A stretch of 64,000 nt of DNA from Candidatus Zhuqueibacterota bacterium (GTDB lineage: Bacteria > Zhuqueibacterota > Zhuqueibacteria > Residuimicrobiales > Krinioviventaceae), in NCBI GenBank assembly GCA_034521575.1, contig JAXHMJ010000002.1, positions 1,001,089-1,065,088 on the forward strand, written 5' to 3'. The stretch's first letter is position 1. Each line of letters opens with the position of its first letter. The notes beneath the pieces are model-generated. The model was not told the DNA's origin and searched no databases. It was given only the letters and a program-made list of their open reading frames with translations. A program made the position numbers and the translations under genes. This document shows, in pieces, positions 30,080 through 55,692 of the stretch.

Positions 30080-30134
30080 TGAGTAGTCTTTAGGTATGAA
30101 TCATTACCTTTTAGTATAAACCAGTAACGTCCGG

Positions 30135-30920
30135 TTAGGTTTTTGCACGTAAGTAATTTCGTCGATTTTTTCTATGAGATTTTCTACGATTTTTCTTGTC
30201 GGAATCTCGCACTTCATTTTGAATTTGAATACGGAGTTCTCGCACTCTTTCGATGTTAACTTTTTCGTTATAATTTTCATGACAATAGATTGCCAGCAGC
30301 AAATATGTAATGAGGCCGCCGAGAATTTGAACCATAAGTCCGTACTGACTTCGAGCTATGAGATGATAGACTTTGAGATGGCGTTTCCACCAAGCGAAGA
30401 AATTTTCAATTTCCCAACGAAGTTTGTATGCCTGAGCAACATCTTCTGCAGAGAGGTCATAACGATTTGTCGCGATCCAGTATTTTACATTGCCGATTTT
30501 ATAACCGACAAGTCGTATCGACTTTTTTGTTTGATTGGTGCCCGGCGTCCCCAATAAAACTATAGCATCATAAAAAACAATGCTTTCTGGTTTTATGTCA
30601 TGTGCATAAAGACATATTTTTTTCGTCGATGCTTTGATGCGGCAGAAAAATTGACGACCGTCCTCCTGCCATTGGTCAAAGCGTTTATGGCATTGATAGC
30701 CCCGATCAAGAACGCCGGACTGGTCAGAAGAGAGTATTTGATCGACAAATGGTCGTTCACCGGCTAAACCGCCTGTGAGATATAGTTTTTTTGGAATGGA
30801 CCGATTAATATCAAAACCGAGATGAACTTTTGCCTTTTTAGAGCCGTTTCTATAATCAGCCCAAGTCATTGAAAGAACAGCATCAATCAAAGAACCGTCG
30901 ATGGCAACAAGCTCCCCCAA
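30135..30920 (-). CDS. IS4-family DDE transposase, C-terminal catalytic part (orfB). Its frame is open upstream to the A7 run at about 31034.
   Basis: The DDE_Tnp_1 region includes LVAIDGS, DRGY and WEIENFFAWWKRHLK. The stop lies inside the left inverted repeat. Confidence 0.8.
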   Translation of the reverse strand: MGELVAIDGSLIDAVLSMTWADYRNGSKKAKVHLGFDINRSIPKKLYLTGGLAGERPFVDQILSSDQSGVLDRGYQCHKRFDQWQEDGRQFFCRIKASTKKICLYAHDIKPESIVFYDAIVLLGTPGTNQTKKSIRLVGYKIGNVKYWIATNRYDLSAEDVAQAYKLRWEIENFFAWWKRHLKVYHLIARSQYGLMVQILGGLITYLLLAIYCHENYNEKVNIERVRELRIQIQNEVRDSDKKNRRKSHRKNRRNYLRAKT

Positions 30921-30982
30921 ATGTTCAAATTGCTTTGGGATAGTGGTCGCAGCTTTGGCTTGAAGTTCATTAAAAACAACAG

Positions 30983-31300
30983 CTAGTTGTTCGAGGCCGC
31001 GATTGTTGATAGCCTCAAAAAAGCTACTTTTTTTGATTCCATCTTTCGGGCAATATGCTCCCGAGCAAATGTATCTTCTTGAAGAACCTGGACAAGATGA
31101 GTCCCTGATTCATGCTCTTCAAGATGATAAAACACGAGGGCATTAAGTTGATCTTCAAATGTCATTTGCAGAGGTCGATCTCCTCGTGAAACTAATGGTG
31201 GTACCTTGGACAAGATAGCCTTGATCGGTTCCATTAGTCTTTTGAATGTTTTAGATTTTTGTCGAGGCTTAAACTTTTTGAATTTACGTCGCATTTCCAT
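30983..31300 (-). CDS. IS4-family transposase, N-terminal part (orfA, DUF4372-like).
   Basis: The 105-aa ORF ends 15 codons after an A7 run (plus-strand T7 at 31028-31034) that forms an A_AAA_AAA heptamer in frame 0. The -1 frame then continues without a stop into orfB. Confidence 0.75.
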   Translation of the reverse strand: MEMRRKFKKFKPRQKSKTFKRLMEPIKAILSKVPPLVSRGDRPLQMTFEDQLNALVFYHLEEHESGTHLVQVLQEDTFAREHIARKMESKKVAFLRLSTIAASNN

Positions 31301-31528
31301 AACACCTTATATTTATTAATGTTATGAAAGTCGACTTCAAAATTTTTGACGTAATGTCAAGTGTTTTTCTGTGTTATGTCATATTTTTTTGTATAATCTG
31401 AGCGTTGCAATTACCTAACCGGACGTTACTGAGTATAAACAATTAATCATATAAAATCAAGCAGATTCAATTCATTGCACAGCTATCATACAAAGAGAAA
31501 ATAACAAAAAAGATTTCAAGAGTCCCCT

Positions 31529-31564
31529 AAAAAGACGGGTCCTGTTGCTGTGAACAGGACCCGT
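31529..31564 (-). terminator. Rho-independent terminator of the encapsulin operon.
   Basis: On the minus strand the sequence is ACGGGTCCTGTT cacagc AACAGGACCCGT CTTTTT. It has a 12-bp perfect stem followed by a U-tract. Confidence 0.75.
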
Positions 31565-31575
31565 ACGGCTAAAAT

Positions 31576-32372
31576 TTATTCAAACACAACCACAGCTCTT
31601 GGGTTCAAATACCTGAAATGTAAAAGATTCAGTGTAAAACAACTCGACTTCTTTGCTGTCGTGTGAATGATATCCAAATTGACAAATCAGCGCCCAGCGT
31701 CAACTGAAAATCTTCGCCCCGCTGGGATACCAGAAATACATCGTCGACCTGTGGACTGAGTACAATCTGTCCTCCCAATATCTCTTCAAGCTGACGACGT
31801 ACCGGATAACCACCGGTATAGCTTGAGATTTGCTGCCATTTCTTCGGGTTGACAACCAATGTATAAGGGCCGCCGATTGAGGCATCTTCCAATACCCGAA
31901 TACCCCGAGTCACAACCGCCAGGGCTTCTTTTGCATCTTTGGGGAGTGAAAGCGGCTCGTTTTCCGAAGCTTCTTTCAACCCCTGAATCCGACCTTGTTT
32001 GAAACCGTAATAAATAGCTTGTTCTTCAAATTTTGCGGTGTTTTCAGCAGCTTTTTCCAGAGAATCAAGATCGACATCCCGGGCGCCGCGGATCAGATTA
32101 TCTATTTCCCAAATATTCAGTTTGAACGGCACACGAACTTCAGTCAAAGGAAGCATGCTGAACGTACCAAACTGGACTTGTTTATTGGATTGACCTTTCG
32201 GAATATCAAGACGTCCCAGCGGAATGGCGCCGAAATCCCATCCTTTGGGTCCATCCACATCTACAACTTTACGGGCAGACAGGTTATTTACCAGAACCGC
32301 GCGTGCGGTTTCATCTATTTCTTGCCATGCCTCATCCGTGAGAGGGGCTAATGACCGTTTTAGAATATCCAT
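31576..32372 (-). CDS. Family-1 encapsulin nanocompartment shell protein (Linocin_M18 fold). The 3' end carries two +1 frameshifts (about 31676 and 31595). The uncorrected ORF is 31629..32372.
   Basis: The sequence MDILKRSLAPLTDEAWQEIDETARAVLVNNLSARKVVDVDGPKGWDFGAIPLGRLD... matches the encapsulin N-terminus. After ...GADLSI the annotated frame reads WISFTRQQRSRVVLH*. Skipping one nucleotide at each of two sites instead gives GYHSHDSKEVELFYTESFTFQVFEPKAVVVFE*, which matches the conserved encapsulin C-terminus. Confidence 0.8.
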
Positions 32373-32392
32373 ATAAAAATCTCCTCGAATTT

Positions 32393-32749
32393 TTATGATA
32401 ATTTTCCAATACCCAAATCACTGCCTCCGGATGCTTTAGAGGCATCGTTACCGTTTTCTTCTTCCTCTTCAACTTTTGTAACATCCCGTCCTGTAAACAG
32501 GTATGTACGCAAATGTTCATCCCAGGCCGGGACATTCTGGCGCAGCCATTCCAGGGTCATACAGGCATGTTCGATTTCTTCATCGCGATTGTGTTCAACT
32601 ATATTTTTCAAATGATCATCATTGGTGGTTACAGCGCGTTGATTATACCAATCAACTGCTTCCACTTCTTCTTTAAGGCTATTAAGAGCACGGGTAATAT
32701 TTCGTGCTTGTTCTCCAAGTTCTTCAGGGGGTTCATGATAGTATGACAT
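32393..32749 (-). CDS. Encapsulated ferritin-like protein (EncFtn/Flp), the cargo, carrying a C-terminal encapsulin-targeting peptide.
   Basis: The protein is 118 aa. The ferritin-like helical core (E..H motifs: EEVEAVDWYNQRA...EEIEHACMTLEWL) is followed by an acidic linker and the terminal ...GGSDLGIGKLS*, which matches the GSLxIGxLK cargo-loading consensus. The gene lies 20 bp upstream of the shell gene. Confidence 0.8.
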   Translation of the reverse strand: MSYYHEPPEELGEQARNITRALNSLKEEVEAVDWYNQRAVTTNDDHLKNIVEHNRDEEIEHACMTLEWLRQNVPAWDEHLRTYLFTGRDVTKVEEEEENGNDASKASGGSDLGIGKLS

Positions 32750-32821
32750 AGTTTCTCCTTTTAATTGAATGAATATTTTGTCTTTATAACAAACCAGACC
32801 GCTGTTTTCATCCGCATTGAA

Positions 32822-33151
32822 TCAATTTTGATACAATAGAATAGAAACATTCTCAACGGTGACGAGTCCACCTTTCAGAGCATCCTGAATAATGGGCAAA
32901 AATGCATCAATTTTATCCGGCACATCAATCATTTCAATAACCAGGGGCAAATCTTCGGACAATCTCAAGATTTTTGCATTGTGAACTACGCTTGTGCGCC
33001 CATATCCCAACTGTCCCCGAAGTACAGTGGCTCCTGCAATATGCATTTCTCTGGCTTTATTTACAATCCATTCAAACAAGGGTTTTCCCTCATAGTGATC
33101 AGATTCCGCAATATAGATGCGCAGCAGTTGGCCTTTTTCAGGCAGCGGCAT
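32822..33151 (-). CDS. DUF190 (PII-like) protein of the kind commonly paired with CrcB.
   Basis: The protein is 109 aa. LLRIYIAESDHYEGKPLFEWIV...GATVLRGQLGYG matches the DUF190/PII-like fold. It lies 10 bp downstream of crcB. Confidence 0.7.
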   Translation of the reverse strand: MPLPEKGQLLRIYIAESDHYEGKPLFEWIVNKAREMHIAGATVLRGQLGYGRTSVVHNAKILRLSEDLPLVIEMIDVPDKIDAFLPIIQDALKGGLVTVENVSILLYQN

Positions 33152-33160
33152 ATGTTCTCC

Positions 33161-33553
33161 TTATATCAATCTAGACAAATACAGTCCTGTGTAAACCGCA
33201 AACAGCCCCAGTCCTGCCTGCACTCCGATGTTCAACGCCATCATCAACAATTGTCCATCCCGAAGCAACATTAAAGATTCGTAGGCAAACGTCGAAAACG
33301 TGGTAAAGCTTCCCAATCCACCGACCAATATCAACAACCGGATTTCCGGAGAAAACATTTGTTTCGAGTTGACCAAACCCATGAAAAATCCAATCAGCAG
33401 GCAACCGAGAATATTGACAAACAATGTGCCCCATGGGAAAAAAGACTGGGGAAAGCATTTCTGAATCCATCCACTGGAGAAATAGCGCAAGGCAGCGCCT
33501 AAAAATCCACCGGCTCCGATATATAATAATTTAATCCACACTATAAACTCCAC
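33161..33553 (-). CDS. crcB: Fluoride ion channel CrcB/FluC.
   Basis: The protein is 130 aa with 4 TM helices. Conserved blocks are GGFLGAALRY, GTLFVNILGCLLIGF and GGLGSFTTFSTF. Confidence 0.85.
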   Translation of the reverse strand: MEFIVWIKLLYIGAGGFLGAALRYFSSGWIQKCFPQSFFPWGTLFVNILGCLLIGFFMGLVNSKQMFSPEIRLLILVGGLGSFTTFSTFAYESLMLLRDGQLLMMALNIGVQAGLGLFAVYTGLYLSRLI

Positions 33554-33564
33554 AGCGCTGCAGC

Positions 33565-34459
33565 TTACAATTCCCAGTATTGGGTTTTTCCAAGAAACTC
33601 TTTTTCGAAATGGTTTTTCAAAATTTCAAACGCCTCATCCACATGATCCACGACATCAAACAAGTTTAAATCATCGCGTGATACGACCCCCCAATCGACG
33701 AGTCCCTGAAAATTAATAATTTTCTCCCAAAACTCTTTGCCGTAGATAATTACTTTGATCGACTTTTTCACCTTTTTGGTTTGCAGCAGGGTCAACAGTT
33801 CAAACAGTTCATCCATCGTACCGAATCCACCCGGAAACACAATCAGGGCTTTGGCAAGATAAACAAACCAGAATTTACGCATGAAGAAATAGTGATACTC
33901 AAAGGATAAATTTTCTGAAATATAGGCATTGGGAAACTGTTCAAACGGCAGACTGATATTCATACCAATGGTTGGGCCGCCTGCATCGGCAGCGCCGCGG
34001 TTCGCAGCTTCCATGATTCCCGGACCGCCCCCGGAACAGACAATAAACCTTTTTTTCTCAGCCAGTTGCATAGACCACTCGGTTAAACGCTTTGCCAGCG
34101 CTCTGGCTTCATCATAGTATCGGGATATTTTCAACTCCCTCTCGGCTCTTTGAAGTCTCCTCCGGTTCAGCGCCTTTTTCACGCAGAGTTTTCAGGTTAT
34201 CTGCAGCTTCTTGAGAAGAAACAAGCCGGGCTGACCCATAAAAAACCACCGTGTCTTTGATATCAAAATGACTGAGCCTGCTTTCTGTCTCAAGGTATTC
34301 CGCAAGCATCCGAATCACCCGGGCGTCATTGCTGTTCAGAAATTCACTGTTATGATAAGCACGTGTTAAATGCGGTTTTTTAAAGGAACGGCTTCTTCCG
34401 ATGCGTTTAAACGGACTCTCTTTTTTATGTGGTGAATAAACATCCCGTTCATTGTACAT
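33565..34459 (-). CDS. LOG-family (type II, TIGR00730 Rossmann-fold) nucleotide 5'-monophosphate nucleosidase. The gene is split by a -1 frameshift near 34150-34185.
   Basis: The N-terminal ORF 34112..34459 contains ...DTVVFYGSARL... The C-terminal ORF 33565..34182 contains ...RFIVCSGGGPGIMEAANRGA...GGFGTMDELFE. Together they form one LOG-type protein. The junction lies in an A5 run. Confidence 0.7.
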
Positions 34460-34466
34460 AATGATT

Positions 34467-35225
34467 TTATCCTTTTGTTAATTGTCGGTCAAGCCAGATC
34501 AGAGACTGTCGGATAACCTGATGTCGGTGACGCGGTATAGAAAATGTATGTATCGCCTGGGGCAGTTCCATAAAATCGCATGGAGGTTTGGCGATCTGAC
34601 GCAGTGCATGAAACCCCTGCACAAACATTGGTGCATCCTGCATACCCTGAGCTACAAATGTGGAAAGGTTCAGTTCAGAGAACGCCGATTTAATATCATA
34701 TTTCAGAACATCCGGGACAAAATCAGCTTCCAGCTCCCAGTGATCAAAGCTTATGATTCTGTTTTCAATCGTTGTTTCAGGATCAACATGCATTCGCTCT
34801 GTCAGCAATTTCCGCGTATCTGTTACAGGAGACCACAGTATAAGCGCATCTATCGGCAATTCATTTGCGCATAGTATGGCGGCGGCGGCGCCCAAACTCA
34901 TCCCTAAAACAGCAATCTGTTTGTACTTTATATTTCGAAGAAAAGAAACAGCATCACGAATGTTATCGATGTTGTGTGACAATCGGGTTTGTCGAAAATC
35001 TCCCTCGCTGTCACCGGAACCGTAAAAATCATAACGAAGCACATCATAGTTTTCTTCGGAAAACGCCCGTGCAGTATGAACAAACAAACGATGGTCTTCG
35101 ACTTTGTCACCGGTAAGCCCGTGACACAAAAGCAAAGACCGCTGCTGTCCTGATGTATGATGCACGCCCATGATCTGATGGCCTTGACTTTTAAAAATCA
35201 CAGGCAGTTCCTGAACCGGTGTCAT
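34467..35225 (-). CDS. Alpha/beta-fold hydrolase.
   Basis: The protein is 252 aa. Blocks are HGLTGDK, the nucleophile elbow GMSLGA, and a C-terminal His. Confidence 0.7.
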   Translation of the reverse strand: MTPVQELPVIFKSQGHQIMGVHHTSGQQRSLLLCHGLTGDKVEDHRLFVHTARAFSEENYDVLRYDFYGSGDSEGDFRQTRLSHNIDNIRDAVSFLRNIKYKQIAVLGMSLGAAAAILCANELPIDALILWSPVTDTRKLLTERMHVDPETTIENRIISFDHWELEADFVPDVLKYDIKSAFSELNLSTFVAQGMQDAPMFVQGFHALRQIAKPPCDFMELPQAIHTFSIPRHRHQVIRQSLIWLDRQLTKG

Positions 35226-35233
35226 AAAATCCT

Positions 35234-35962
35234 CTAAATTTTACCGAACAGGCTCATAAATTTCAGCTTCCATACCATCCAAACCGCTTCCCAGACGATT
35301 TTTCGCGACATTTTAGAAGTCCCGGCCCGGCGGTCTATAAAAATAATAGGAACTTCACCCAGAGTAAATCCTTTTTTCCAGGCTTTGAAATTGAGCTCGA
35401 TCTGAAAAGAATATCCGTCAGACTGTACCTGATCCAGATTTAGATTCTGCAATACTTCCCGTCTGAAGCATTTGAATCCGCTTGTGCAATCCTTGACAGG
35501 TAATCCTGTAACCAGTTTTGTATACAGACTGGCTCCCATACTGAGTATCAATCGCGAAAGCGGCCAGTTGACAACATTCACACCGTGGATATAGCGGGAT
35601 CCCAACACAATATCATAGGTCTGACTGGCCTTGAGCAGATTGGAGAGTTCGGCTGGATCGTGCGAAAAATCCGCGTCCATCTCAATAACGCGATCATAGC
35701 CGTGTTCCAACGCATATTTAAAACCGCGGACATAGGCAGTCCCCAGGCCGGATTTTGTCGGACGTTTGATGAGTTTAACCCGGGATTGTGGACCCGCTAT
35801 TTCCTCTACAATCCCTCCGGTTCCGTCCGGGGAATTGTCGTCAATGACCAAAACATCCAGTCCGTCTATTTTCTGTCTGAGAATCGCTTCAATAATCTTT
35901 AAAATATTCTCAGACTCGTTATATGTGGGAATAATTACCAGGGATTTCACCGATTTCTCCAT
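35234..35962 (-). CDS. GT2 polyprenol-phosphate glycosyltransferase (Dpm1/GtrB-like polyprenol monophosphomannose/glucose synthase).
   Basis: The protein is 242 aa. Blocks IIPTYNESENI, VIDDNSPDGT, DADFSHDP and GFKCFRREVL match Dpm1-type GT2 enzymes. Confidence 0.8.
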   Translation of the reverse strand: MEKSVKSLVIIPTYNESENILKIIEAILRQKIDGLDVLVIDDNSPDGTGGIVEEIAGPQSRVKLIKRPTKSGLGTAYVRGFKYALEHGYDRVIEMDADFSHDPAELSNLLKASQTYDIVLGSRYIHGVNVVNWPLSRLILSMGASLYTKLVTGLPVKDCTSGFKCFRREVLQNLNLDQVQSDGYSFQIELNFKAWKKGFTLGEVPIIFIDRRAGTSKMSRKIVWEAVWMVWKLKFMSLFGKI

Positions 35963-36859
35963 TTAAAGATTTAAATGATCCTTGAGTATTCTCAGGCTCT
36001 CACGGTTATCCAAAAGTAAAAGTCCGAGTTCAGTTATTGCCTTGTCCACAACAAGACCGGAGTTTAGCGGCCGCGGTGCTTTTTGTCCGAGTTCCGGGGT
36101 TGATATCGCAGTCATAAGCCGTAAATCCAGATCAAATACCTCGCAAATCTGCCGGGCAAATTCAAGGCGGCTGTTGATTTCTTTCCCGGCTATATTCAGA
36201 ATACCTGTATATCGTTGTTCAATAACACGCCAAATATTTTCGGCGAGATTGTCGTTCAGTGTGGCATTCCCAATCTGATCATTTACAATCTTTACCCTGC
36301 GGCCGGCTTTGAGTTCACCGATCAACCATTGAACAAAATCGGGTCGCTGGTTTTTAGACGTACCATACAGCACCATCGTTCGAATTATGGTCGACTCTAC
36401 AGGCGCACCGCGAAGAACATTCTCAGCTGCCAGCTTGGATTTGCCGTAATAACCAAGAGGATTCGGCGTCGCATCCTCTGTATAGGGTCCGTTTTTCCCG
36501 TCAAAAATATAATCGCTCGAAATTTGCAGGATACGGCTGCGGGTTTTTCTGGCAGCATAAGCCAGATTTTCTGCCGCCTCAACATTGACAGTCCAACAGA
36601 GTTCACGCTCTACCTCTGCCCTGTCCACATGTGTATAAGCAGCGCAGTTTATAATCCAGTCCGGAGAAAAAGCATCAAGAACATCAAAGGTTTTTCCACG
36701 GTCTGTAAGATCACAGGACACATAGTTGGGCTGTGTCAGAGGCTGTGGAGATTCCGGAAGATCGATACAAAGCAGCTCTTTGTTATCAGGTGTGGAATGT
36801 AAGAGCCGTTGTCCCAATAGTCCCAGGCTTCCGGCTATTGCAATTTTTTCCATAATCAT
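35963..36859 (-). CDS. rfbD: dTDP-4-dehydrorhamnose reductase (RmlD/RfbD family NAD(P)-dependent reductase).
   Basis: The 298-aa protein has the RmlD substrate-binding-domain blocks GSLGLLG, INCAAYTHVDRAE and YGKSKLAAE. Confidence 0.7.
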   Translation of the reverse strand: MIMEKIAIAGSLGLLGQRLLHSTPDNKELLCIDLPESPQPLTQPNYVSCDLTDRGKTFDVLDAFSPDWIINCAAYTHVDRAEVERELCWTVNVEAAENLAYAARKTRSRILQISSDYIFDGKNGPYTEDATPNPLGYYGKSKLAAENVLRGAPVESTIIRTMVLYGTSKNQRPDFVQWLIGELKAGRRVKIVNDQIGNATLNDNLAENIWRVIEQRYTGILNIAGKEINSRLEFARQICEVFDLDLRLMTAISTPELGQKAPRPLNSGLVVDKAITELGLLLLDNRESLRILKDHLNL

Positions 36860-36862
36860 TGT

Positions 36863-37321
36863 CTATAGTTTACACTGGTTAGCGCGGAACTGATCAAGCT
36901 TTTCCTGAATTGACGGATTTGCAGCGGCGAATATCTGAGCAGCATAAATGGCTGCATTCACAGCTCCTGATTTTCCAATAGCCATGGTCGCAACCGGAAT
37001 ACCGCGGGGCATCTGTACAATGCTGTAAAGCGCATCCAGTCCATTCAGGGCGGATCCACCGAGCGGAACGCCTATAACCGGCACAGTGGTATGACTTGCA
37101 ATGACCCCCGGCAAATGTGCAGCCATTCCGGCGCCGGCAATAATCAGAGCGTAACCGTTTTTCGCGGCGTTTTTTGCAAATTCCGCCGTATCATCCGGCG
37201 TTCTATGAGCGGACATCACAAAGGTATCAAACTCGATATCAAAATAGGCAAGATATTCGTGAGCATGCTGCATAATTTTTTCATCCGAAGTACTACCCAT
37301 AATAATGGCAACTTTTGGCAT
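36863..37321 (-). CDS. purE: 5-(carboxyamino)imidazole ribonucleotide mutase PurE.
   Basis: RBS GGAGG is followed by ATG 37321. The sequence MPKVAIIMGSTSD...IIAGAGMAAHLPGVIASHTTVPVIGVP is the PurE signature. Confidence 0.85.
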   Translation of the reverse strand: MPKVAIIMGSTSDEKIMQHAHEYLAYFDIEFDTFVMSAHRTPDDTAEFAKNAAKNGYALIIAGAGMAAHLPGVIASHTTVPVIGVPLGGSALNGLDALYSIVQMPRGIPVATMAIGKSGAVNAAIYAAQIFAAANPSIQEKLDQFRANQCKL

Positions 37322-37386
37322 CCACGCCTCCATTGTATTTAAACGTTCACAAAGCAGTATCCGGTCTTCCGGACACCCTTTACTGT

Positions 37387-38418
37387 TTATTTAGTTTGCG
37401 TTTTGAATGTCCTGGCCATCACATCCAACTGGCGCAGGTAGGGCAATTTTTTGTCGCCCGGCGCAAAGACCGCCATATCCACAAGATAAAGGCGCTGAGC
37501 ATCAGGATCATAAAACCCATAACTTTTAAAAGGGCCGCCTGCCGGTCTCGTTTTTTTGTCATTTTGCCAAACACCGGTCAATTGAATAGCCGGAAAACCA
37601 CAAAAATCGACTTCGCGCACCGTGAGGTCTATTTTATCCGTCACATAATCACCATCGTAATAGGGATCAGAAATATCAGCCCGGCGCTGCAACATCCAGG
37701 ATTTGCTCAATTCATAGGGATCTTCACTGGGTTCGTAGTAAACAGAAATCCAGCGCTGCGGGTCCAGTCGTTCAAGCAGGGTCAGCCGTTCTTTGAGAGA
37801 ATCCACGACTATAAAAAAGTCCGGCTGAACCCGTAGACTCCAGCCATGTTCTTTCATAAAGCGTTCTGAAAGTTCTTTTTTCTCCATGTGACGGAACAAG
37901 TTGGTTTTAACCCGTTCATTGACAAAATCATTGAATATATCAAATAATTGATCACTGTTGGCCTGTAAATCCTGTTGCAAATCCTCAACATTATTGGAAA
38001 CAGCCACAACAAGCATTTGATTGGTGGACCAGGCATCCCGTTTGTTAAATAAAAAGGCGTTATTCTGAATTACCTGCTCGCGCGAACTTTCTGACAGCAG
38101 ATTATCAACATATTCTTTCACCTCTCCTTCTGCGTCAAGAGTGCCAAGCAGTAAGATGTTCGGAACCCGGGAGAGGCGTCCCAGTTGATCAGGATTTCTC
38201 TGCAAAAAGGAAAAAACAGCTTCAGGTTGCGGAGTAAATATTTTACGCGCCAGAACATCACGAACCTCATCCTGCACCTTTAGCCACAGAGTGGAATCCG
38301 CCACCACAATAACCTTGTTTATATTGCCGAGCGATGGGCGTTTTTCTCCGCACGAAGAATACAAGCCGATAATCATCAACACGGTGAGCAGCAAAACAGC
38401 TGTTCGTTTTAGCCTCAT
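37387..38418 (-). CDS. DUF4837-family lipoprotein.
   Basis: The lipoprotein signal is MRLKRTAVLLLTVLMIIGLYSSC. The roughly 340-aa soluble domain is of a kind common in Bacteroidota-like genomes. Confidence 0.55.
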   Translation of the reverse strand: MRLKRTAVLLLTVLMIIGLYSSCGEKRPSLGNINKVIVVADSTLWLKVQDEVRDVLARKIFTPQPEAVFSFLQRNPDQLGRLSRVPNILLLGTLDAEGEVKEYVDNLLSESSREQVIQNNAFLFNKRDAWSTNQMLVVAVSNNVEDLQQDLQANSDQLFDIFNDFVNERVKTNLFRHMEKKELSERFMKEHGWSLRVQPDFFIVVDSLKERLTLLERLDPQRWISVYYEPSEDPYELSKSWMLQRRADISDPYYDGDYVTDKIDLTVREVDFCGFPAIQLTGVWQNDKKTRPAGGPFKSYGFYDPDAQRLYLVDMAVFAPGDKKLPYLRQLDVMARTFKTQTK

Positions 38419-38479
38419 ATTTACCTCCATTGTCATTTAATGTTCTATCCTATAAAACGGATAAAACCCTGCATTTCTT

Positions 38480-39487
38480 TCAGGATTTTGCGGAAAACCC
38501 TTTGCACGTTTCCTTTCGAAATGCAAACAGGATGCCGCCGGGTACTGTGGCAATAATTGCAACAAGATAAGCAAGAAATTCGAATGATACCACCTGTGAA
38601 GCGGCGACACCAATACTGGCAAACATAGATACACCGCTCTGTTCCCGAACCCCGATCCCCCCCATAGAAATGGGGAGACTGGCAGCCATCGCGATAATGG
38701 GAACAAACATAAAAAAGAACATAACATTGGTTTCTACCCCCACAGCGCGGGCAGCCCAAAAATGGACAATTACACGCAGCGCCTGCACACAGAGGGAAAC
38801 CACCAAAACCTTGGTCATCAGACCTTTTTTATGACGAAAATAATTAATCGCTTTGTAAACATCGCGTGTTTTATTAAACACGACAGACGGTATAAAGTGT
38901 TTCACATGTTTTATTAAAAAACGGGCAGCCTTTTCATTGAATAAAAGATACAGGCCTAACAGCCAGGCTGCCATAATAATGGCAATAAAATAAACAGTAT
39001 TCACAACCGTTAAAAGCTGAATACCGATGAGCGCAACAATCAAAGCCATCGAAGTAAGAGACAAAAAGCCGATAAATCTGTCAAATATTACAGTAGAAAG
39101 AGCGGCTGTTGAATTGCCGGATGTTTTTGTAATATCATAGATGCGAAAGGCATCACCGCCGACATAACCGAGTAAAAAATTATTAAAAAAAAGGCCGACA
39201 TGATAGTATGACAGGACCTGTCTAAACCGAACCGCAATATCCTGTGAACGCAGCAGGAGAAACCACTGAAATGAACCCATTATATTGCTCACTGCAAAAC
39301 ACACAATACCAATCAGGACATACCACCAATTTGCATGTCTTAACCTGAACAAGATTGAATCCAGGCCAATGCGGTTAAGGATAATAGCAACAAGTGCGGC
39401 ACTGATCGTAAACTTTAGAATGGTTATGAGCAAATTTCGTTTCGGTCGTGCTTTGGATTCCAAGATATTCCAATTCCTTTCAGACAT
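38480..39487 (-). CDS. Flippase-like membrane protein (lysylphosphatidylglycerol-synthase TM-domain / UPF0104 family).
   Basis: The protein is 335 aa with about 8 TM helices. The start KRNLLITILKFTISAALVAIILNRIGLD is typical of UPF0104 proteins. The gene lies between the GT-C and GT2 genes. Confidence 0.6.
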   Translation of the reverse strand: MSERNWNILESKARPKRNLLITILKFTISAALVAIILNRIGLDSILFRLRHANWWYVLIGIVCFAVSNIMGSFQWFLLLRSQDIAVRFRQVLSYYHVGLFFNNFLLGYVGGDAFRIYDITKTSGNSTAALSTVIFDRFIGFLSLTSMALIVALIGIQLLTVVNTVYFIAIIMAAWLLGLYLLFNEKAARFLIKHVKHFIPSVVFNKTRDVYKAINYFRHKKGLMTKVLVVSLCVQALRVIVHFWAARAVGVETNVMFFFMFVPIIAMAASLPISMGGIGVREQSGVSMFASIGVAASQVVSFEFLAYLVAIIATVPGGILFAFRKETCKGFSAKS

Positions 39488-39522
39488 GCCCTCCCCTCTG
39501 AATCAGAGGGGAGGATTTTCTG

Positions 39523-42168
39523 TTATTCCAGAGAGTCAATCAAACTGGTATCATTTTTAATTTTTTCTTCAAGCTGCTGCATCTTGCGCTGTGCATTCTG
39601 ATCATCCGGATTTGTTCCCTGCCACTTGTTCATAGCCTCAAGAGCTTGTTCATACTTGCCCTGCTGTTCAAGCATGTTTATGTAGGTTCCGGCGATATAG
39701 CTATCCGAAGGATTCATTTCGTAAGCATATTCAACAAGGTCCAGGCTTTTTTCATTTGCATCAGCATACTGATACATATTGGCGACCTGTACCATCAATC
39801 TGGGATCCGGCGGCGGGATCACTTTAAAGGGAATACGTTCCTGCATTTTATCAAGTGCCCGGACCACAGCTTTATCATCTCCCTGGCGCCTGTATTCCCA
39901 CACCAGACGCAGATAGGCGGCACGATAATTCTGCAGCAAGCCGATGATACTCTTGTTAAAATATACATCCGGATTATCAAGATTACGATATTTGAATTTA
40001 TCCAGGTTCTTTTCCAGCTTTTCACCATACACATGTTCAACCTGGTAGGGTACCAGTTTAAAACAAAGTCCGTCCATTCGCAGATAGTTATCAAGATTGA
40101 TTTTGTTCTGATCCGACACGGTTACCGCGAAATAGATCGGTTTCTCCCACCTGTTGGCCAGAATAATGTTCAGAATCATATAATCCTGCACTCGCAGCGC
40201 CTGGCCCATGATTGTGGGTTCGACTGTAACACGCATTTTTGAATCCTGATACTCGGAACTTTGCAGAAAAAGAGTTGAATCCTGCATATCATTTAGAGCA
40301 TCCTCTTTGCCCTGTTCCGTGACCGGGATGGCGATGGTGCTTTTTTCCCATCTCTGGATATTGATATCATCAATGCGATGGTCTGGAATCGAAATGGGAA
40401 CTTTGGGCTCCTCATGTTTAAGTTGTTTGATATACCAGTCTGTGTTCAACAGACTCAGATTAACCACCCGCACATCCGGTCGAATATTCTCTACATATTG
40501 CAAATACCAAAGTGGAAAGGTATCATTATCGCCATTTGTGAACACAATACCATCTTTTTCACAGGTTTCAAGGATATTATAAGAATAATCATAAGCGACA
40601 AAATTACCGCTACGGTCATGGTCCTGAAAATTGTGCGCAAACAGTATACCTGGCGCCATAACCAAGGCGAGCAAAATAGCCACACCTGCATAAACCATTC
40701 TCAGTTTTATTTTTTCAACCCGTTCCTGTAACCATTCAAGAACCGCTGTCACCCCCATTCCGATCCATATACTGAATGCAAAGAATGACCCGACATAGAC
40801 ATAATCCCGTTCTCTGGGCTGTGGATCAGGCTGGTTCAGATAAATAATAATCGCGAGACCGGTCAGGAAAAACAACGCCAGAATAAACAGCGCGTGTCTC
40901 CAATGCCTGGAGAAATGGTGAACCATTCCGAGAACGCCCAGGAGAAACGGAAGGGCAAACAAACCATTGAACGATAAATTTTCGGCAATAAACCCATCCT
41001 GGCCGATCGTTGTTCCTTTTCCGATAAACTGCCAGCCAAAATAACGGAAATACATTTTTTTAATCTGATAATTCCAAAAGAAATCCATCTGTTCGTCCCA
41101 GCGAAACGTTTTATAATCCTGGTTCGGATATTGCCGTTCGAACTGCCATTCAGGCGGCAGGTCCGGAAAACGTCTCGGGAATGTGCCCCAACTGCCGTAC
41201 TGCTCTCGATTCAGATATTTGACCATTTTTTCCATCGTCTCCGGATTATTCTCATCCACGGCCGGATCTGCATTGGAACGGATGTAAATCATAGTATATG
41301 TTGAATAACCGGTTAAGACGAGCAACAAAGCCATAAACGCCAATGTAAAAATGCGTTTTTTCTGTGAAATACCATACAAGACCCCTCCCAACACGGCAAG
41401 AATTACAATCAGGAGAAACCACATGCCGACAGATCCAGCGATTCTCGGAACAAACTGAACGACACCCGGGTAAATCACAGCAAAGACCCCGCCGGTGATC
41501 AAAACAAAGTACAATAGATTTTTCCAGGTAATGATCTCGCCGCGTTGGTCCAGAATTTTGAAATAAATAATCATAAAAATAGCCGGCAGTGCCAGAATCA
41601 TCAGCAAGTGAACACCGATAGCCAGTCCGACAAAATAGGCGATCAGCAGCAGATAACGTTCATTTCCGGGCTCATCGGCTTTTTCCAGCCACACCAAAAT
41701 GCACCAGACAATCATAGCCGTAAACATCATCGAAATGGCATATACCTCTGCTTCCACGGCACTGAACCAGAATGTATCGCTAAAGGCAAAGGCGAGTGAT
41801 CCAACCAGACCGCTGGCGAGCAGAATCAGGGTATCGTAAAAAGATTTTGATGCACCGCGCCATTGTTTGATCAGTCGCACAATAATCAGGAATGCAAGCA
41901 TAACCGTCAAAGCTGAAGACAGTGCTGAAACAATATTGACGCGTAATGCAATATTGCCGGCGATAGGTAAAAGAGTAAAAATCCGTCCGATCAACAGGTA
42001 AAACGGCGCACCCGGGGGATGCGGAACTCCAAGAATATAGGAGCATGTGATAAACTCACCGCAATCCCAGAATGAAGTTGTCGGGGCGATTGTGATCAGG
42101 TAAACAATCAACGAGCTGACAAAGGTCAAGCCGCCAAAAAGCCTGATAATGTTTTTTTCATTCTGCAT
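39523..42168 (-). CDS. DUF2723-family GT-C-type glycosyltransferase (PMT/ArnT-like, GT39/GT83-like) with a C-terminal TPR region.
   Basis: The protein is 881 aa. The N-terminal motif ...TSFWDCGEFITCSYILGVPHPPGAPFYLL is the DUF2723/PMT_2 motif with its DxE-type loop. More than 11 TM helices are predicted. The C-terminus has TPR-like repeats (...YEQALEAMNKWQGTNPDDQNAQRKMQQLEEKI). Confidence 0.7.
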   Translation of the reverse strand: MQNEKNIIRLFGGLTFVSSLIVYLITIAPTTSFWDCGEFITCSYILGVPHPPGAPFYLLIGRIFTLLPIAGNIALRVNIVSALSSALTVMLAFLIIVRLIKQWRGASKSFYDTLILLASGLVGSLAFAFSDTFWFSAVEAEVYAISMMFTAMIVWCILVWLEKADEPGNERYLLLIAYFVGLAIGVHLLMILALPAIFMIIYFKILDQRGEIITWKNLLYFVLITGGVFAVIYPGVVQFVPRIAGSVGMWFLLIVILAVLGGVLYGISQKKRIFTLAFMALLLVLTGYSTYTMIYIRSNADPAVDENNPETMEKMVKYLNREQYGSWGTFPRRFPDLPPEWQFERQYPNQDYKTFRWDEQMDFFWNYQIKKMYFRYFGWQFIGKGTTIGQDGFIAENLSFNGLFALPFLLGVLGMVHHFSRHWRHALFILALFFLTGLAIIIYLNQPDPQPRERDYVYVGSFFAFSIWIGMGVTAVLEWLQERVEKIKLRMVYAGVAILLALVMAPGILFAHNFQDHDRSGNFVAYDYSYNILETCEKDGIVFTNGDNDTFPLWYLQYVENIRPDVRVVNLSLLNTDWYIKQLKHEEPKVPISIPDHRIDDINIQRWEKSTIAIPVTEQGKEDALNDMQDSTLFLQSSEYQDSKMRVTVEPTIMGQALRVQDYMILNIILANRWEKPIYFAVTVSDQNKINLDNYLRMDGLCFKLVPYQVEHVYGEKLEKNLDKFKYRNLDNPDVYFNKSIIGLLQNYRAAYLRLVWEYRRQGDDKAVVRALDKMQERIPFKVIPPPDPRLMVQVANMYQYADANEKSLDLVEYAYEMNPSDSYIAGTYINMLEQQGKYEQALEAMNKWQGTNPDDQNAQRKMQQLEEKIKNDTSLIDSLE

Positions 42169-42177
42169 TTTTTCTCC

Positions 42178-43299
42178 TCAGTGCTGTTTTTTTGTAATTT
42201 TCTCAATAATGTCGAGTGCATGATCTGCCGAGGCATCCCATTGAAAAGATTCCGCCCAGCGTCTCGACTGCACCGCTAATTTATTTCTCAATTCTGCATC
42301 ATCCAATAGCATATTTAGATAATCCTTCATTTTGCTCAAATCGCCGTACGGATAAAGATAGCCGGTTTTTTCATGCACCACCGAATCCCGCAATCCCGGT
42401 GAATCAGATGCAATAACCGGGACGCCGCAGGCGTTGGCCTCGATGACCGTGAGTCCCCATCCTTCTTTGGGAGAAGGATTTACCGCCACCCATAGTCGGT
42501 TAAGCCACTGCACTTTTTCTTTATGTGTGACATGACCGGTAAAATGTACACGATCCCGAAGTTCAAGCCTGTCCACTAACTTTATCAGCGACGCCTTGTA
42601 ATCTCCGTCTCCGATGATCACACACCAGGCATCCGGTCTATGTGAAAATATTTCCGGCAAAGCCTTTATCAAATGATCGATTTTTTTATACTTTTTCAAC
42701 CGCCCCAGATACCCGATCAGAGGTTTGTCCTCTTTTTGGTGCAGCCAGGAATATTTTTGTACATCCACGGCATTCGGCAGAGCATAGATATCAGTCGAAA
42801 TACCCTTGTCCCGCAGTTCTTTGCGTGTACTGTCTGACACCACTGCAAACGGCGTGTTTCGATAAAAAAACGGGACCAGGCGTTCACTCTGACAAACATA
42901 TTGCGCCTGCAGATAAGACGCCTGCATGAAAATGCTTTTTCCGAAAAAATGATGCACAATAGCAATCAGCGGTTTTTTGACAAAGAGCGGTGTAAAAAAC
43001 GGTATCTTGTTGATATCATCAAAGACAATATCAAAATTATACGTGCGGTTCAGTTTTTGATAAACAAACGGCACCAAAAAATTAAACGTATTGCGGGAAC
43101 CGCAGCGAATCACGCGCATGCCGTCAATCCATTCCGATGTGGCAGCGCCTCCATATCGACAACACAGAAAAGTGACATGGTGTCCTTTGGCCGCTACACG
43201 CCGAAAAATTTCGTGAGCATGAACTTCGGCGCCTCCACCCAGCGGATGTGTGATATCCTGCCAATTGATGATCAATATGTTATACTGCTTTGTATTCAC
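42178..43299 (-). CDS. Glycosyltransferase family 4 (GT4, Glycos_transf_1).
   Basis: The protein is 373 aa. The N-terminal blocks are HPLGGGAEVHAHE. The C-terminus EGWGLTVIEANACGVPVIASDSPGLRDSV carries the E-x7-E motif. Confidence 0.8.
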   Translation of the reverse strand: MNTKQYNILIINWQDITHPLGGGAEVHAHEIFRRVAAKGHHVTFLCCRYGGAATSEWIDGMRVIRCGSRNTFNFLVPFVYQKLNRTYNFDIVFDDINKIPFFTPLFVKKPLIAIVHHFFGKSIFMQASYLQAQYVCQSERLVPFFYRNTPFAVVSDSTRKELRDKGISTDIYALPNAVDVQKYSWLHQKEDKPLIGYLGRLKKYKKIDHLIKALPEIFSHRPDAWCVIIGDGDYKASLIKLVDRLELRDRVHFTGHVTHKEKVQWLNRLWVAVNPSPKEGWGLTVIEANACGVPVIASDSPGLRDSVVHEKTGYLYPYGDLSKMKDYLNMLLDDAELRNKLAVQSRRWAESFQWDASADHALDIIEKITKKQH

Positions 43300-44078
43300 T
43301 GTTCCCTTTCATCTTTTATACCGATCACACCGATATCCATGAACGTATAAAAGGACAGTGAAAAGGTCTTGAACCATTTGGCAAATGCTTCAGCGGCGGC
43401 CGAGATCAACGGGATTTTCGGATAAGGGGCTATATTGATTCTTAGCTTTAACAATGCTTTGCGGAGAGCGCGATAAAACAGCCCCGGACGCATCCAGCTG
43501 CCGTAACGGTGATAAATATGAAAACCCTGTTGACGGAACATAGCTGCGAGTTGACCAATCGTAAACTCGGTTTCCCATCCGGCGAACCATTTATTCATCC
43601 ATATTAAAAGATGCTTGATCAGTGTATACAAATGAAATGTTTGTGGTACGTCCGCGAGCGTATAGCCGCCACGGGCGGTAATTCTGTAATTTTCCTTTAT
43701 AATCTCTTCCGGATTGCTAAAATGTTCCAGCAAGCCCTGATGATAGACCACATCCATACAGTCATCTTTAAACGGAAGATGAAACGCATCTCCTTTTACC
43801 AGAAAGACCGGCTTTTCCATTTTGTGCGCCAAATGTTTCATCACCTTGAGGGAGTTGTCCGCATAGTCGAGCAGAATAACGGTTGCACCCAGATCAACGA
43901 GCTTGAACCCGTCTCGACCGGAGCCGGCGCCGATTTCAATAACCCGTTTTCCGTCAAGTTCTGTAAGAGACTGAACCTGTCCAATGATTCGTGCAGAATT
44001 GGAATAAACCTCATCAATCGTCTCCGGATCCCAAAAGTCCTCCCACACTTTTTGATTATGCTGTTCCTGTTTCGGCAT
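43296..44078 (-). CDS. Class I SAM-dependent methyltransferase.
   Basis: Motif I is VIEIGAGSGRDGFKL. Its stop overlaps the GT4 start (ATGA). Confidence 0.75.
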   Translation of the reverse strand: MPKQEQHNQKVWEDFWDPETIDEVYSNSARIIGQVQSLTELDGKRVIEIGAGSGRDGFKLVDLGATVILLDYADNSLKVMKHLAHKMEKPVFLVKGDAFHLPFKDDCMDVVYHQGLLEHFSNPEEIIKENYRITARGGYTLADVPQTFHLYTLIKHLLIWMNKWFAGWETEFTIGQLAAMFRQQGFHIYHRYGSWMRPGLFYRALRKALLKLRINIAPYPKIPLISAAAEAFAKWFKTFSLSFYTFMDIGVIGIKDEREQ

Positions 44079-44228
44079 TCAAGTTCCTGTTTGAGTTTTC
44101 CATCGCCTCGACTTTTAAATAACCGCAAATATTAAAATAAAAGAGTCTGGCAAGAAAAACAAGTTAAATGTCATAAATGTCTATCAAATAATGGTAGTAT
44201 TCATTTCATCATAAAACTCTGACAGATT

Positions 44229-46325
44229 TCAGCTGACCAAAGCAAAGTCAGAGCGTTCCTTAAACCGACGCATCAGGTAATCGCCGCCGGGATTCTCAAT
44301 CCACTCATCTGCTTTTGGTTCGTTTTGCATAAATTCAAACGCCTCTTTTCTGGCACGAACCAGAATATCCTGATCGTTCAGTATATCGGCGATCAACAAA
44401 TTCGGCAATCCATGCTGGCGCACACCAAAATAATCGCCCGGTCCGCGCAGTTTCAGATCGCGTTCGGCAATCACAAAACCATCCGTTGTTTCGGCCATTG
44501 CATTTAACCGTGTCAGCGCCTCATCGCTCAGAGGATCATAAGCGATCAGAATACAAAACGACTGCTTTACCCCGCGTCCAACGCGTCCCCGCAGCTGGTG
44601 CAACTGGGTCAAGCCAAAGCGTTCCGCATGTTCAATCACCATAATGGTCGCATTCGGCACATCAACACCAACCTCAATGACCGTAGTACTGACCAATAGG
44701 TCTATATCTTCGGCTTTGAAACGATTCATGGTATGCTCTTTTTCATCACTGCTCATGCGACCATGCAAAAGTCCGATTCTAAAATTCTGAAAAAACCTGG
44801 TTTTCATGATTTCATAACTATCAACCGCCGCTTTGAGATCCAGTTTTTCTGATTCTTCGACCAAAGGAAAAACAACATAGACCTGAGCGCCGGCTGCGAG
44901 CTGATCGCGCACAAACCTGTATATTTGCGGACGCTTGTTTTCCAGCCGCCAGGTGGTACGAACGGGTTTTCTGCCGCCGGGCAGCTTGTCGAGGACAGAA
45001 ACATCGAGGTCGCCGTAAACCGTCATGGACAGGGTGCGAGGAATGGGCGTTGCGGTCATAACCAGAACATCAGGCGAAAAGCCTTTTTGCCGCAGCCGGG
45101 CCCGCTGCATAACACCGAATCTGTGCTGTTCATCGATTACGACGAATCCCAGATTGCGAAATTCAACCTGATCCTGAATCACAGCATGCGTACCGACCAC
45201 AATTTGTGCAAAACCGCTTTCTATATTTTCCAAAATCTGTCTTCGCGTTGCTGCAGGCTGCCCGCCGACAATAAGCACCACATGGACATCGATACGTTCC
45301 AGCAGCGAATGTATCGTTAAAAAGTGTTGTTCGGCCAGTATTTCCGTGGGCGCCATCAGCGCGGCCTGATAGCCGTTTTCTACTGCAATTAGCATGGATA
45401 GCAGGGCGACAATGGTTTTTCCGGAACCCACATCACCCTGCAAAAGGCGGTTCATGGAATACTCATTTTCCATATCTGCCGTAATTTCCGCGACAACGCG
45501 TTCCTGAGCATCTGTGAGTTTAAACGGCAGCATATCGAGCAGTTCACGGGTTTTATCCTGTTTCGCTTTAAACGCGATTCCAATTTCACTGCGCGTCATG
45601 CTTTTTTTACGGGCGGCCAGCATGAGTTCAAGATAAAAAAGTTCACTAAAAACAAGACGGTCTCGGGAACGGGATAAAGTATCGAAATTATCGGGAAAAT
45701 GAATCTGCCCCAGGGCAGCAGCGAGCGGCATCAGATCCTGACGTTCGATCATGGCGGCGGGCAGAGGATCCTTTATATTTTCAAGAAAGGAGCCCGTGAT
45801 CACAGCATTGATCAGCCGGCGCAGCCCCCGGCTGTCCAGATTGACCTTGGTAAGAGATTCCGTTGATGGGTATACCGGAATGATTTTACCGGTATTGATA
45901 TTGCCCTCACGATCACCCCCCAGCCGGTCAAAATCGGGATGGGTCATCTGATAGCCGTTAAAGCGTTTGACTTTGCCGCTCACGGCAAGCCATTCACCAA
46001 TCGTAAATATTTTTTGCCAGTAGGATAAACGTGAAAACCACACACAGGTTAACAGCGACGTATCATCTTTGAGCACAAGGACGAACCGGTTTTTACGGCC
46101 TTTGACAAAATCCTTTTGGATGATACGGCCGGCAACAGTCACTTCCTCTCCCTCACGCAATCTGGCAATCGGTGTTACCGTAGACCGGTCCAGATAGCGT
46201 CTTGGGAAATAATACAGCAAATCCTCGATCGTCCGTATTCCATTTTCCTGCAGAACAACAGCCCGTTTGGGACCAATGCTGCGCAATGATTCAATGGGCT
46301 GATGTAAGCTGTAGGGAAATGCCAT
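44229..46325 (-). CDS. recG: ATP-dependent DNA helicase RecG.
   Basis: The protein is 698 aa with an N-terminal wedge/OB domain. The Walker A motif is GDVGSGKT. The DEQH box and helicase C motifs QLHQLRGRVGRG are present. Confidence 0.9.
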   Translation of the reverse strand: MAFPYSLHQPIESLRSIGPKRAVVLQENGIRTIEDLLYYFPRRYLDRSTVTPIARLREGEEVTVAGRIIQKDFVKGRKNRFVLVLKDDTSLLTCVWFSRLSYWQKIFTIGEWLAVSGKVKRFNGYQMTHPDFDRLGGDREGNINTGKIIPVYPSTESLTKVNLDSRGLRRLINAVITGSFLENIKDPLPAAMIERQDLMPLAAALGQIHFPDNFDTLSRSRDRLVFSELFYLELMLAARKKSMTRSEIGIAFKAKQDKTRELLDMLPFKLTDAQERVVAEITADMENEYSMNRLLQGDVGSGKTIVALLSMLIAVENGYQAALMAPTEILAEQHFLTIHSLLERIDVHVVLIVGGQPAATRRQILENIESGFAQIVVGTHAVIQDQVEFRNLGFVVIDEQHRFGVMQRARLRQKGFSPDVLVMTATPIPRTLSMTVYGDLDVSVLDKLPGGRKPVRTTWRLENKRPQIYRFVRDQLAAGAQVYVVFPLVEESEKLDLKAAVDSYEIMKTRFFQNFRIGLLHGRMSSDEKEHTMNRFKAEDIDLLVSTTVIEVGVDVPNATIMVIEHAERFGLTQLHQLRGRVGRGVKQSFCILIAYDPLSDEALTRLNAMAETTDGFVIAERDLKLRGPGDYFGVRQHGLPNLLIADILNDQDILVRARKEAFEFMQNEPKADEWIENPGGDYLMRRFKERSDFALVS

Positions 46326-46337
46326 AAAATATCCGTA

Positions 46338-47678
46338 TTATTGCCGATATAGAACCGTGTACGTAAATGTTTTTTCTTGATCTGCCGCTACATCGACAGC
46401 AAACTCACAGAGAGTGGCGGTCCTGCGTGATATTTTGGGTGTGCTGCCAACAAACTCCCAATCACCCCAAAAATGCTCGACAACCGTAACGGTTATATCG
46501 TTTTGTTTGTGGTTGCGTAAAGATATTTCAACAGTCTCCTGACGAGTGTTACTGGTTACCCGCTCCCGTGATTTTACTGTGCGTTCGCCAACCACATCAA
46601 AGGCATTTCCCAGGGTCAGACGCACCCGCTCATCCTTGGGGGTATGATCGATTCGATCTTCTCCGATAAACTCCTGTGCTCCGTCTTTTGATTCTTTGTA
46701 AACCCGCACCTTGCCTTTGGGCAGCGGCATGCCGAGCCCGTTTTCTTCGCTGTTCATAAACTCAAGATCAACTCTGACTTTTTGTTTTTGGCCGTCATAG
46801 ATAAAGCGTTTTTCCGCCGGTGCGGTTTGGGGAGAAAAAAGAGAAATTTGTTTGACTTGTCGGTCTTTGAGCGTAGCCGGACGCTGCAGACGGTAGAGAT
46901 GATATTCAAACAATTCTTCCTGCTGAAACTGCTGCGGGGCTTCTGCGGCAACCATAGCTCTGTCCAGCCGCTGTACTCTTTTCTCTTCAGATGCTTTATT
47001 CAGATCTCCTGCAACCAGCTTTATTACAGCATCTTTATAGGTGGCGCCGCTGGTATTATGTATAGAAACCCAGGCGGAAAGCTCGAGCCGATCATCATCC
47101 TCATTAACCACTCCCACATACTGCGCATCCCAGCTCATATCCCCGGTAAGGTAACTGATCTCGGTTTTATGAGTTCCCGCTTTGTCGGCATCCAGCAGCC
47201 AAACCAGCGTCGGACGGGTTTTCAGACCAGCGGGCAGTTCGGGAAATTCAACATGCTCAATGACGTCTTTGGCAATTGCTCTGACTTTGCCGTTTTGAGT
47301 CATGAGAACAATATAACCATTATTGGAACTTGCAAGCTTGCCCTGAAGAAAATTTTCCTGACGCGTTACCAATTGCACCGTCTGGTCCAGATAGGTTTCC
47401 AACAACCGGTCCATACCCACGAGATCATATTCAAAATTTTGTTCCAAAATATGCACCTGACCGGGGGCGGTCAGAGACTTGAAATGCACTGATGTGGGAT
47501 CAATAGAGGCTGCCACATCAGTGAACTCGAACACTTGTCGTCCCATTTCAAATTTGTTTTCCCGAACATCACGTACCAACGACATGTTTCCGTTATAGAT
47601 TGTTACGGCGATATCCGAAGCCGATAACGAAACAACGCAAACCATCAGGCTGATCAAAATAATCTGAAAGAATCTCAT
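46338..47678 (-). CDS. DUF4139/DUF4140-domain protein (TIGR02231 mucoidy-inhibitor-A-like), secreted.
   Basis: The protein is 446 aa with a signal peptide. The N-terminus DIAVTIYNGNMSLVRDVR... and the C-terminal DUF4139 blocks are recognisable. Confidence 0.6.
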   Translation of the reverse strand: MRFFQIILISLMVCVVSLSASDIAVTIYNGNMSLVRDVRENKFEMGRQVFEFTDVAASIDPTSVHFKSLTAPGQVHILEQNFEYDLVGMDRLLETYLDQTVQLVTRQENFLQGKLASSNNGYIVLMTQNGKVRAIAKDVIEHVEFPELPAGLKTRPTLVWLLDADKAGTHKTEISYLTGDMSWDAQYVGVVNEDDDRLELSAWVSIHNTSGATYKDAVIKLVAGDLNKASEEKRVQRLDRAMVAAEAPQQFQQEELFEYHLYRLQRPATLKDRQVKQISLFSPQTAPAEKRFIYDGQKQKVRVDLEFMNSEENGLGMPLPKGKVRVYKESKDGAQEFIGEDRIDHTPKDERVRLTLGNAFDVVGERTVKSRERVTSNTRQETVEISLRNHKQNDITVTVVEHFWGDWEFVGSTPKISRRTATLCEFAVDVAADQEKTFTYTVLYRQ

Positions 47679-47771
47679 AGCACACCACCCGTTTATTAAA
47701 GTTTACTCAAATCAATAAAACGCGAATTTGCAATTCAAGTTCCTGGTTTTATTTGATAAACCCGTCTTTTA

Positions 47772-50759: not shown

Positions 50760-50781
50760 GTAACATTTTTGCATCCATCCA

Positions 50782-55459: not shown

Positions 55460-55692
55460 AATCTGTTTATGTTGAATCAGATGTATTCAATTGGAACACT
55501 TTGCCAGACTTTATAAACAGCCTGTGCTTTAAAAAACCTTCGGAATTCATTGCGATATTTTTTATATTATTGATATTACTTGATTTATAATTTTTTGACA
55601 ATCTAAGTTTTGTACCATCTTTTAATCACATTCGGTATAATTGTTGCATTTTCAATCCCGAATAAAAAGGTTTACAAAACTTTTTTCAGTTA

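Follow-up and report, generated by a model that had tools for sequence, protein, structure and literature searches.

Four co-directional genes in the order crcB–DUF190–EncFtn–shell were identified, from the open reading frame (ORF) list and Pfam matches, on the minus strand of a 64-kb stretch of contig JAXHMJ010000002.1. This stretch (positions 1–64000) is hereafter termed the window; it belongs to a metagenome-assembled genome (MAG) of candidate division KSB1. The last two genes constitute a canonical iron-storage system of the Family 1 encapsulin type, with an encapsulated ferritin (EncFtn) as the cargo. The system is already known and annotated, and NCBI names for these proteins are on record (MDZ7722674.1 to MDZ7722676.1). 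Pfam E values are 1.6e-28 for CRCB, 2.1e-37 for DUF190, 3.2e-40 for EncFtn-like and 3e-76 for Linocin_M18, and the crcB, EncFtn and shell matches to NCBIfam models all exceed the curated cut-offs. The first-pass annotation of this DNA had described a Family 1 encapsulin with an EncFtn cargo, a shell gene 20 bp after the cargo and then a strong terminator, with a fluoride channel and its PII-like partner upstream. The Pfam and NCBIfam models, the coordinates, the terminator fold and the CrcB and DUF190 domain matches agree with this description, and the intergenic gaps are 9 nt (crcB/DUF190), 72 nt (DUF190/EncFtn) and 20 nt (EncFtn/shell).

The EncFtn gene (32393–32749) encodes 118 amino acids (aa) and matches PF22277 with 136 bits and TIGR04535, 'encapsulin-associated ferritin-like', with 154 bits. 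The product aligns without gaps over 90 residues, at an offset of +4, with Rhodospirillum rubrum EncFtn (5DA5), such that E31, E32, E34, W38, Y39, E62 and H65 of R. rubrum correspond to E27, E28, E30, W34, Y35, E58 and H61 here. In R. rubrum, E32, E62, H65 and Y39 form the ferroxidase centre and E31, E34 and W38 the entry site (He et al., 2016; PMC5012862). The ferroxidase-centre residues (E28, E58, H61 and Y35) and the entry-site residues (E27, E30 and W34) are all kept in the KSB1 protein. The EncFtn of that system is a metal-dependent decamer that oxidizes Fe(II), the iron being stored only inside a shell, and its C-terminal localization sequence binds that shell (PMC5012862). The core also aligns with the EncFtn proteins of R. 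rubrum and Haliangium ochraceum taken together (5DA5, 7OE2 and 7ODW; E 2.4e-31 to 2.5e-27). These systems share with the present cargo the ferroxidase and entry-site residues and the localization sequence, and the sole difference is a glutamate-rich linker between core and peptide here, 'EEEEENGNDASKAS'.

Translation of the cargo gene confirms the C-terminal targeting peptide GGSDLGIGKLS claimed at first pass (32396–32428, with the stop codon at 32393–32395). The Thermotoga maritima cargo (Flp/EncFtn) carries a C-terminal peptide of the same type (LGIxKL). Among cargo tails encoded beside related shells the motif (D/S)LGIGK(L/I) is conserved, and LGI[GR] is present in 67 of 82 distinct tails. 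The EncFtn gene lies directly upstream of the shell gene in 79 of 80 GTDB loci, and the remaining locus ends at a contig edge; the pairing of targeting peptide and shell is thus a feature of the homologues as well. In one of the loci examined, from an uncultured Bacteroidales MAG (L044), an in-frame TAG at 4770–4772 interrupts the conserved EncFtn core (…TQD*DLKNIMAHN…). Nonsense mutation, sequencing error and recoding are all possible explanations.

The shell gene is interrupted in the deposited sequence. Its ORF stops at 31629 and encodes 247 aa, of which residues 1–232 are in frame and the last 15 are out of frame. An uninterrupted ORF of full length (about 260–270 aa) is absent from the deposited sequence and appears after repair; translation of the 3' end in three frames shows the encapsulin C-terminus scattered over all of them. 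DNA alignment with the orthologous loci L001 and L002 places one extra nucleotide at each of two sites, both on the minus strand. The first is an extra T in TTT (AAA on the plus strand) at 31676–31678, after codon 232 (...DLSI/GY...). The second, 77 nt beyond the first, is an extra A in CCCAAGAG at 31599–31600, where the orthologues have CCC-AGAG. Deletion of one base per site generates a 795-nt ORF (31576–32372) encoding 264 aa and ending in ...TESFTFQVFEPRAVVVFE. The repaired protein aligns without gaps to the orthologues P0002 (76% identity) and P0003 (73%), both also of 264 aa. PF04454 is matched by the deposited ORF with 256 bits (cut-off 24.3) and NF041155 by the repaired ORF with 280 bits (cut-off 100). 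Residues 1–262 of the repaired shell match the T. maritima encapsulin (maritimacin, 3DKT/7KQ5) in 3DKT with an E value of 8.8e-68. The T. maritima system has the same cargo-then-shell gene order; it differs from the present one in belonging to another phylum than KSB1, and the deposited shell here is broken by the two 1-nt insertions.

A structure model was made with AlphaFold for P0002, the 76% identical and gap-free orthologue, and has a predicted local distance difference test (pLDDT) score of 85.5. In this model, residues 231–237, 241–254 and 260–263 form beta-strands with a pLDDT of about 90–95. Template modelling (TM) scores against T=1 Family 1 shells are 0.85–0.88, including 0.85 at 44% identity for 7KQ5 of T. 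maritima. Both sequence and fold single out T=1 shells as the nearest solved relatives, among them those of T. maritima, H. ochraceum and mycobacteria. Because all three C-terminal strands are lost, the deposited 247-aa product is, on the basis of this model, probably non-functional and unable to fold or assemble. The first-pass annotation had also reported two insertions of 1 nt each towards the 3' end of the shell gene, which the alignment with L001 and L002 confirms, and had predicted that, if real, they would truncate the C-terminal strand; such a truncation would remove three strands and not one.

The insertions are probably indel errors left over in a long-read metagenome assembly; the real gene would then encode an intact shell of 264 aa. 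The use of long reads is suggested by the 1.17-Mb contig. In the 32 residues past the first frameshift, 29 (91%) are identical to P0002, compared with 76% over the whole protein, and purifying selection has therefore acted on this segment over essentially all of the divergence time, without neutral decay. In addition, at least three further genes within the window are split by frame breaks, as counted from homology and Pfam evidence only: a LOG gene, a GDSL-like lipase gene and an IS4 transposase gene. The LOG/TIGR00730-family gene (33565–34459, minus strand), identified by Pfam and NCBIfam matches, lies directly upstream of crcB and contains a +1 frameshift at about 34145–34165. It gives two tblastn high-scoring segment pairs in different frames, and the orthologue in L002 is intact at 297 aa. 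The lipase gene (55666–56899, plus strand) consists of two overlapping ORFs in different frames, with positions 2–76 of the Lipase_GDSL_2 profile matched on one and 73–177 on the next.

The third split gene belongs to an IS4-family insertion sequence (IS), which occupies 30113–31440 with its target duplication (element 30122–31431, 1310 bp), as delimited by inverted repeats and flanks. It sits between the shell terminator, about 100 nt away, and a PAS histidine kinase gene, 42 nt upstream of the latter's start at 30079. At the orthologous position, L001 and L002 lack an IS. The perfect 9-bp target duplication AGTATAAAC and the 26-bp terminal inverted repeats indicate that this copy is recent and presumably active. 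Its transposase is divided between ORFs 30983–31300 and 30135–30920, and only profile positions 108–330 of the NF033592 IS4 transposase model are matched. The element had no match in the plasmid collection searched. That unrelated genes are split alike, a freshly transposed IS included, points to assembly and not to biology.

If both insertions were real, the shell gene would be a very recent pseudogene lacking residues 233–264, and an orphan EncFtn would oxidize iron with no storage compartment. Both insertions are indeed present in the deposited sequence, the segment lost comprises the three confidently modelled strands, without which the product is unlikely to fold or assemble, and the IS4 element has recently inserted close downstream. 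This explanation is nevertheless considered unlikely: there is no other sign of decay, the shell tail being as similar to its orthologue as stated above and its stop codon and terminator intact; EncFtn and the targeting peptide are also intact; and at least three genes unrelated to the shell are split in a similar way within the 64 kb, that of a newly transposed element among them. Production of the shell via programmed +1 ribosomal frameshifting at both sites can be regarded as extremely improbable. Both shifts are +1, and skipping one base per site would restore the full protein. However, L001 and L002, the closest orthologous loci covering the region, have ORFs uninterrupted at both sites, and neither site shows an evident slippery or stimulatory element. 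It is implausible that a single member of a clade should have two separate programmed sites at a distance of 77 nt, and frame breaks of this kind are also seen in genes unrelated to the shell.

Several points weigh against assembly error as the source of the insertions. The two shell insertions lie closer together than expected of random errors, and no frameshift site falls within a long homopolymer. An active IS next to the locus would also fit a degree of genuine gene decay. The sequence of the closest relative, L089 (84% nucleotide identity), breaks off at shell residue 183 and so reaches neither frameshift, and a scan of Joint Genome Institute (JGI) metagenomes with the repaired shell returned only relatives of 46–51% identity and no second copy of the population. 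The deposited 247-aa shell MDZ7722674.1 is a frameshifted product and is unfit for use as an example of a natural truncated variant.

Upstream of the encapsulin pair, crcB (33161–33541, 126 aa; PF02537 and TIGR00494) encodes a predicted Fluc-type fluoride channel. The PF02537 profile is covered over positions 1–103 of 103, and TIGR00494 is matched with 96.2 bits (cut-off 80.45). The longest crcB ORF opens at GTG 33553, whereas the alignment with orthologues begins at 33541, where a GTG has a GGAG (33551–33548) 6 nt upstream. Judged from this alignment, the start is most likely GTG 33541, as in the orthologues, and not 33553. Homodimeric Fluc channels are encoded by a single small gene, and CrcB is likewise single here. 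The DUF190 gene (COG1993, PII-like; 32822–33151, 109 aa) has its own GGAG and matches PF02641 with 127.7 bits.

The order crcB–DUF190–EncFtn–shell recurs in L001, L002 and L089/L090, the closest relatives available (73–84% nucleotide identity). In these, genes for a glycosyltransferase, an alpha/beta hydrolase, LOG, a PAS histidine kinase, a response regulator and Usp are also collinear. As the whole neighbourhood is collinear, the shared order stems from common descent, with no specific linkage behind it. Hidden Markov models (HMMs) built from three CrcB and three DUF190 sequences were searched against all 98 fetched loci (~0.8 Mb). No match was found beyond the close clade even at E <= 10, and crcB and DUF190 are thus absent from 80 GTDB, four JGI and three other KSB1 EncFtn-encapsulin loci. 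As a control, the same HMMs detected CrcB and DUF190 of alphaproteobacterial, Bacteroidota, actinobacterial and cyanobacterial plasmids at E <= 1e-12. The other KSB1 encapsulin loci (55–59% protein identity) have upstream a P-type ATPase gene, a GST/thioredoxin pair or an AOX-like gene, and the EncFtn–shell pair is a two-gene unit placed in many different contexts.

The first-pass annotation had suggested a four-gene transcript tying halide export to an iron-mineralizing compartment. In such a functional operon, fluoride export would be coupled to iron mineralization, for example if fluoride stress perturbed iron or oxidative homeostasis. The co-direction of the four genes, their gaps of 9–72 nt, the lack of a terminator ahead of 31564 and the preservation of the gene order in L001, L002 and L089 are consistent with this proposal. 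It is judged very improbable all the same, since the order is kept along with all its surroundings, as expected of collinearity by descent, and the linkage is confined to that collinear clade (0 of 80 GTDB loci, with validated HMMs also negative at the JGI and other KSB1 loci). EncFtn and shell travel as a pair, crcB–DUF190 is self-contained elsewhere, and there is no fluoride riboswitch at the locus (see below). The tightly packed co-directional run of minus-strand genes also continues upstream of crcB to ~50.3 kb, with gaps of about 7–23 nt, so that nothing singles out a four-gene unit. The literature search found no paper combining encapsulin with CrcB, nor encapsulin with KSB1. Were the coupling real, an iron nanocompartment of a KSB1 clade would join the response to halide or ion stress, a link not found in the literature searched.

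Two observations weigh against the independence of the two modules. The juxtaposition of crcB–DUF190 with the encapsulin genes persists over four lineages at 73–84% nucleotide identity, and co-transcription is possible because no terminator intervenes between DUF190 and EncFtn; in 31000–36000 of the minus strand, the only terminator-like sites are that at 31564 and a weak one within the shell gene. Even so, it is likely that the locus combines a canonical encapsulin system, insertions that are most likely assembly errors, and a separate, widely distributed fluoride-export module in crcB–DUF190, whose functional coupling to the encapsulin is not supported by the comparisons of gene order. The apparent fluoride–iron operon is an example of how inherited collinearity, shared by a handful of near relatives, can be mistaken for functional linkage. 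The co-directional run itself spans ~19 kb (31576–50300, minus strand) and ends at the encapsulin terminator; it includes genes for glycosyltransferases, a methyltransferase, an LPG-synthase-like protein, an epimerase/reductase, a hydrolase, LOG and CrcB, among others.

An upstream fluoride riboswitch is a frequent, though not obligatory, feature of crcB/Fluc genes, and one had been sought upstream of crcB following the first-pass annotation. The fluoride riboswitch family RF01734 gave no match at gathering score in the window and none at E <= 10 in 31300–36200, and no Rfam family reached gathering score anywhere in 1–64000. RF01734 was also not found in the KSB1 loci L001, L002 and L089, whereas the same search gave 41–57 bits in the control loci L095 and L096. 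In the window, crcB starts 23 nt after LOG (17–25 nt across KSB1 loci), and there is no room for a riboswitch upstream of crcB because LOG is so close.

DUF190 is the usual partner of crcB in the sequences compared, and lies directly after it on Methylocystis, Hymenobacter and Streptomyces plasmids, from three other phyla. In the plasmid operons of Methylocystis sp. MJC1 and Hymenobacter sp. GOD-10R, DUF190 follows crcB by 0–27 nt, a pairing like that seen here. In contrast to the KSB1 loci, these operons are headed by fluoride riboswitches (RF01734, 41–57 bits), which supports the involvement of DUF190 in responding to fluoride. The riboswitches heading the Methylocystis and Hymenobacter plasmid operons are at L095 187–248 and 3192–3253 and at L096 271–344. 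The Hymenobacter operon has two tandem DUF190 genes, and in Streptomyces pFRL5 the order is crcB–DUF190–crcB.

By analogy with characterized systems, EncFtn would assemble as a ring of ten subunits whose dimer interfaces hold di-iron ferroxidase centres, and the LGIGKL peptide would dock it onto the inner face of an HK97-fold shell of 60 subunits (T=1) and ~24 nm. Fe(II) would enter via the shell pores, be oxidized and be kept inside as a ferric mineral. The T=1 geometry and the iron storage are predicted from homology only, which also tempers the interpretation given above. The position of crcB–DUF190 upstream is attributed to local gene order inherited within the clade, and its transcription may run into EncFtn–shell. 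EncFtn-loaded Family 1 encapsulins are a textbook class and GenBank already carries an annotation of this copy, so the locus carries little biological weight. Its practical value is as a caution, other genes of the window being split in the same way as the shell gene.

Elsewhere in the window, chains of overlapping same-strand ORFs in differing frames occur at 5332–8096, 50764–53284 and 56823–63750 (all plus strand). They bear Big_1/Invasin_D3 or GEVED domains and terminate in a C-terminal sorting domain of the type IX secretion system. These are probably large secreted or surface proteins broken by more frameshifts.

At the downstream end of the encapsulin pair, the intrinsic terminator (31564–31535, minus strand) starts 11 nt past the repaired shell stop codon. 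It has a 12-bp stem that includes seven GC pairs, a 6-nt loop and a following T-run, and folds at -21.9 kcal/mol (z = -3.43), none of 200 shuffles being equally good. At the upstream end, an AT-rich spacer of 72 nt separates DUF190 from EncFtn. The spacer was also considered as the site of a terminator or structured RNA, which was rejected because its fold is no better than that of shuffled sequences (z = +0.47). Alignment with L001 and L002 reveals the conserved blocks GGATGAAA and TTGTTATAAA and an AAGGAG ribosome-binding site. The blocks are kept in the window (32750–32821, minus strand), L001 (1125–1198) and L002 (2956–3025), lineages that are only ~74% identical overall. Given this conservation, the spacer may serve the encapsulin pair as an internal promoter or operator.

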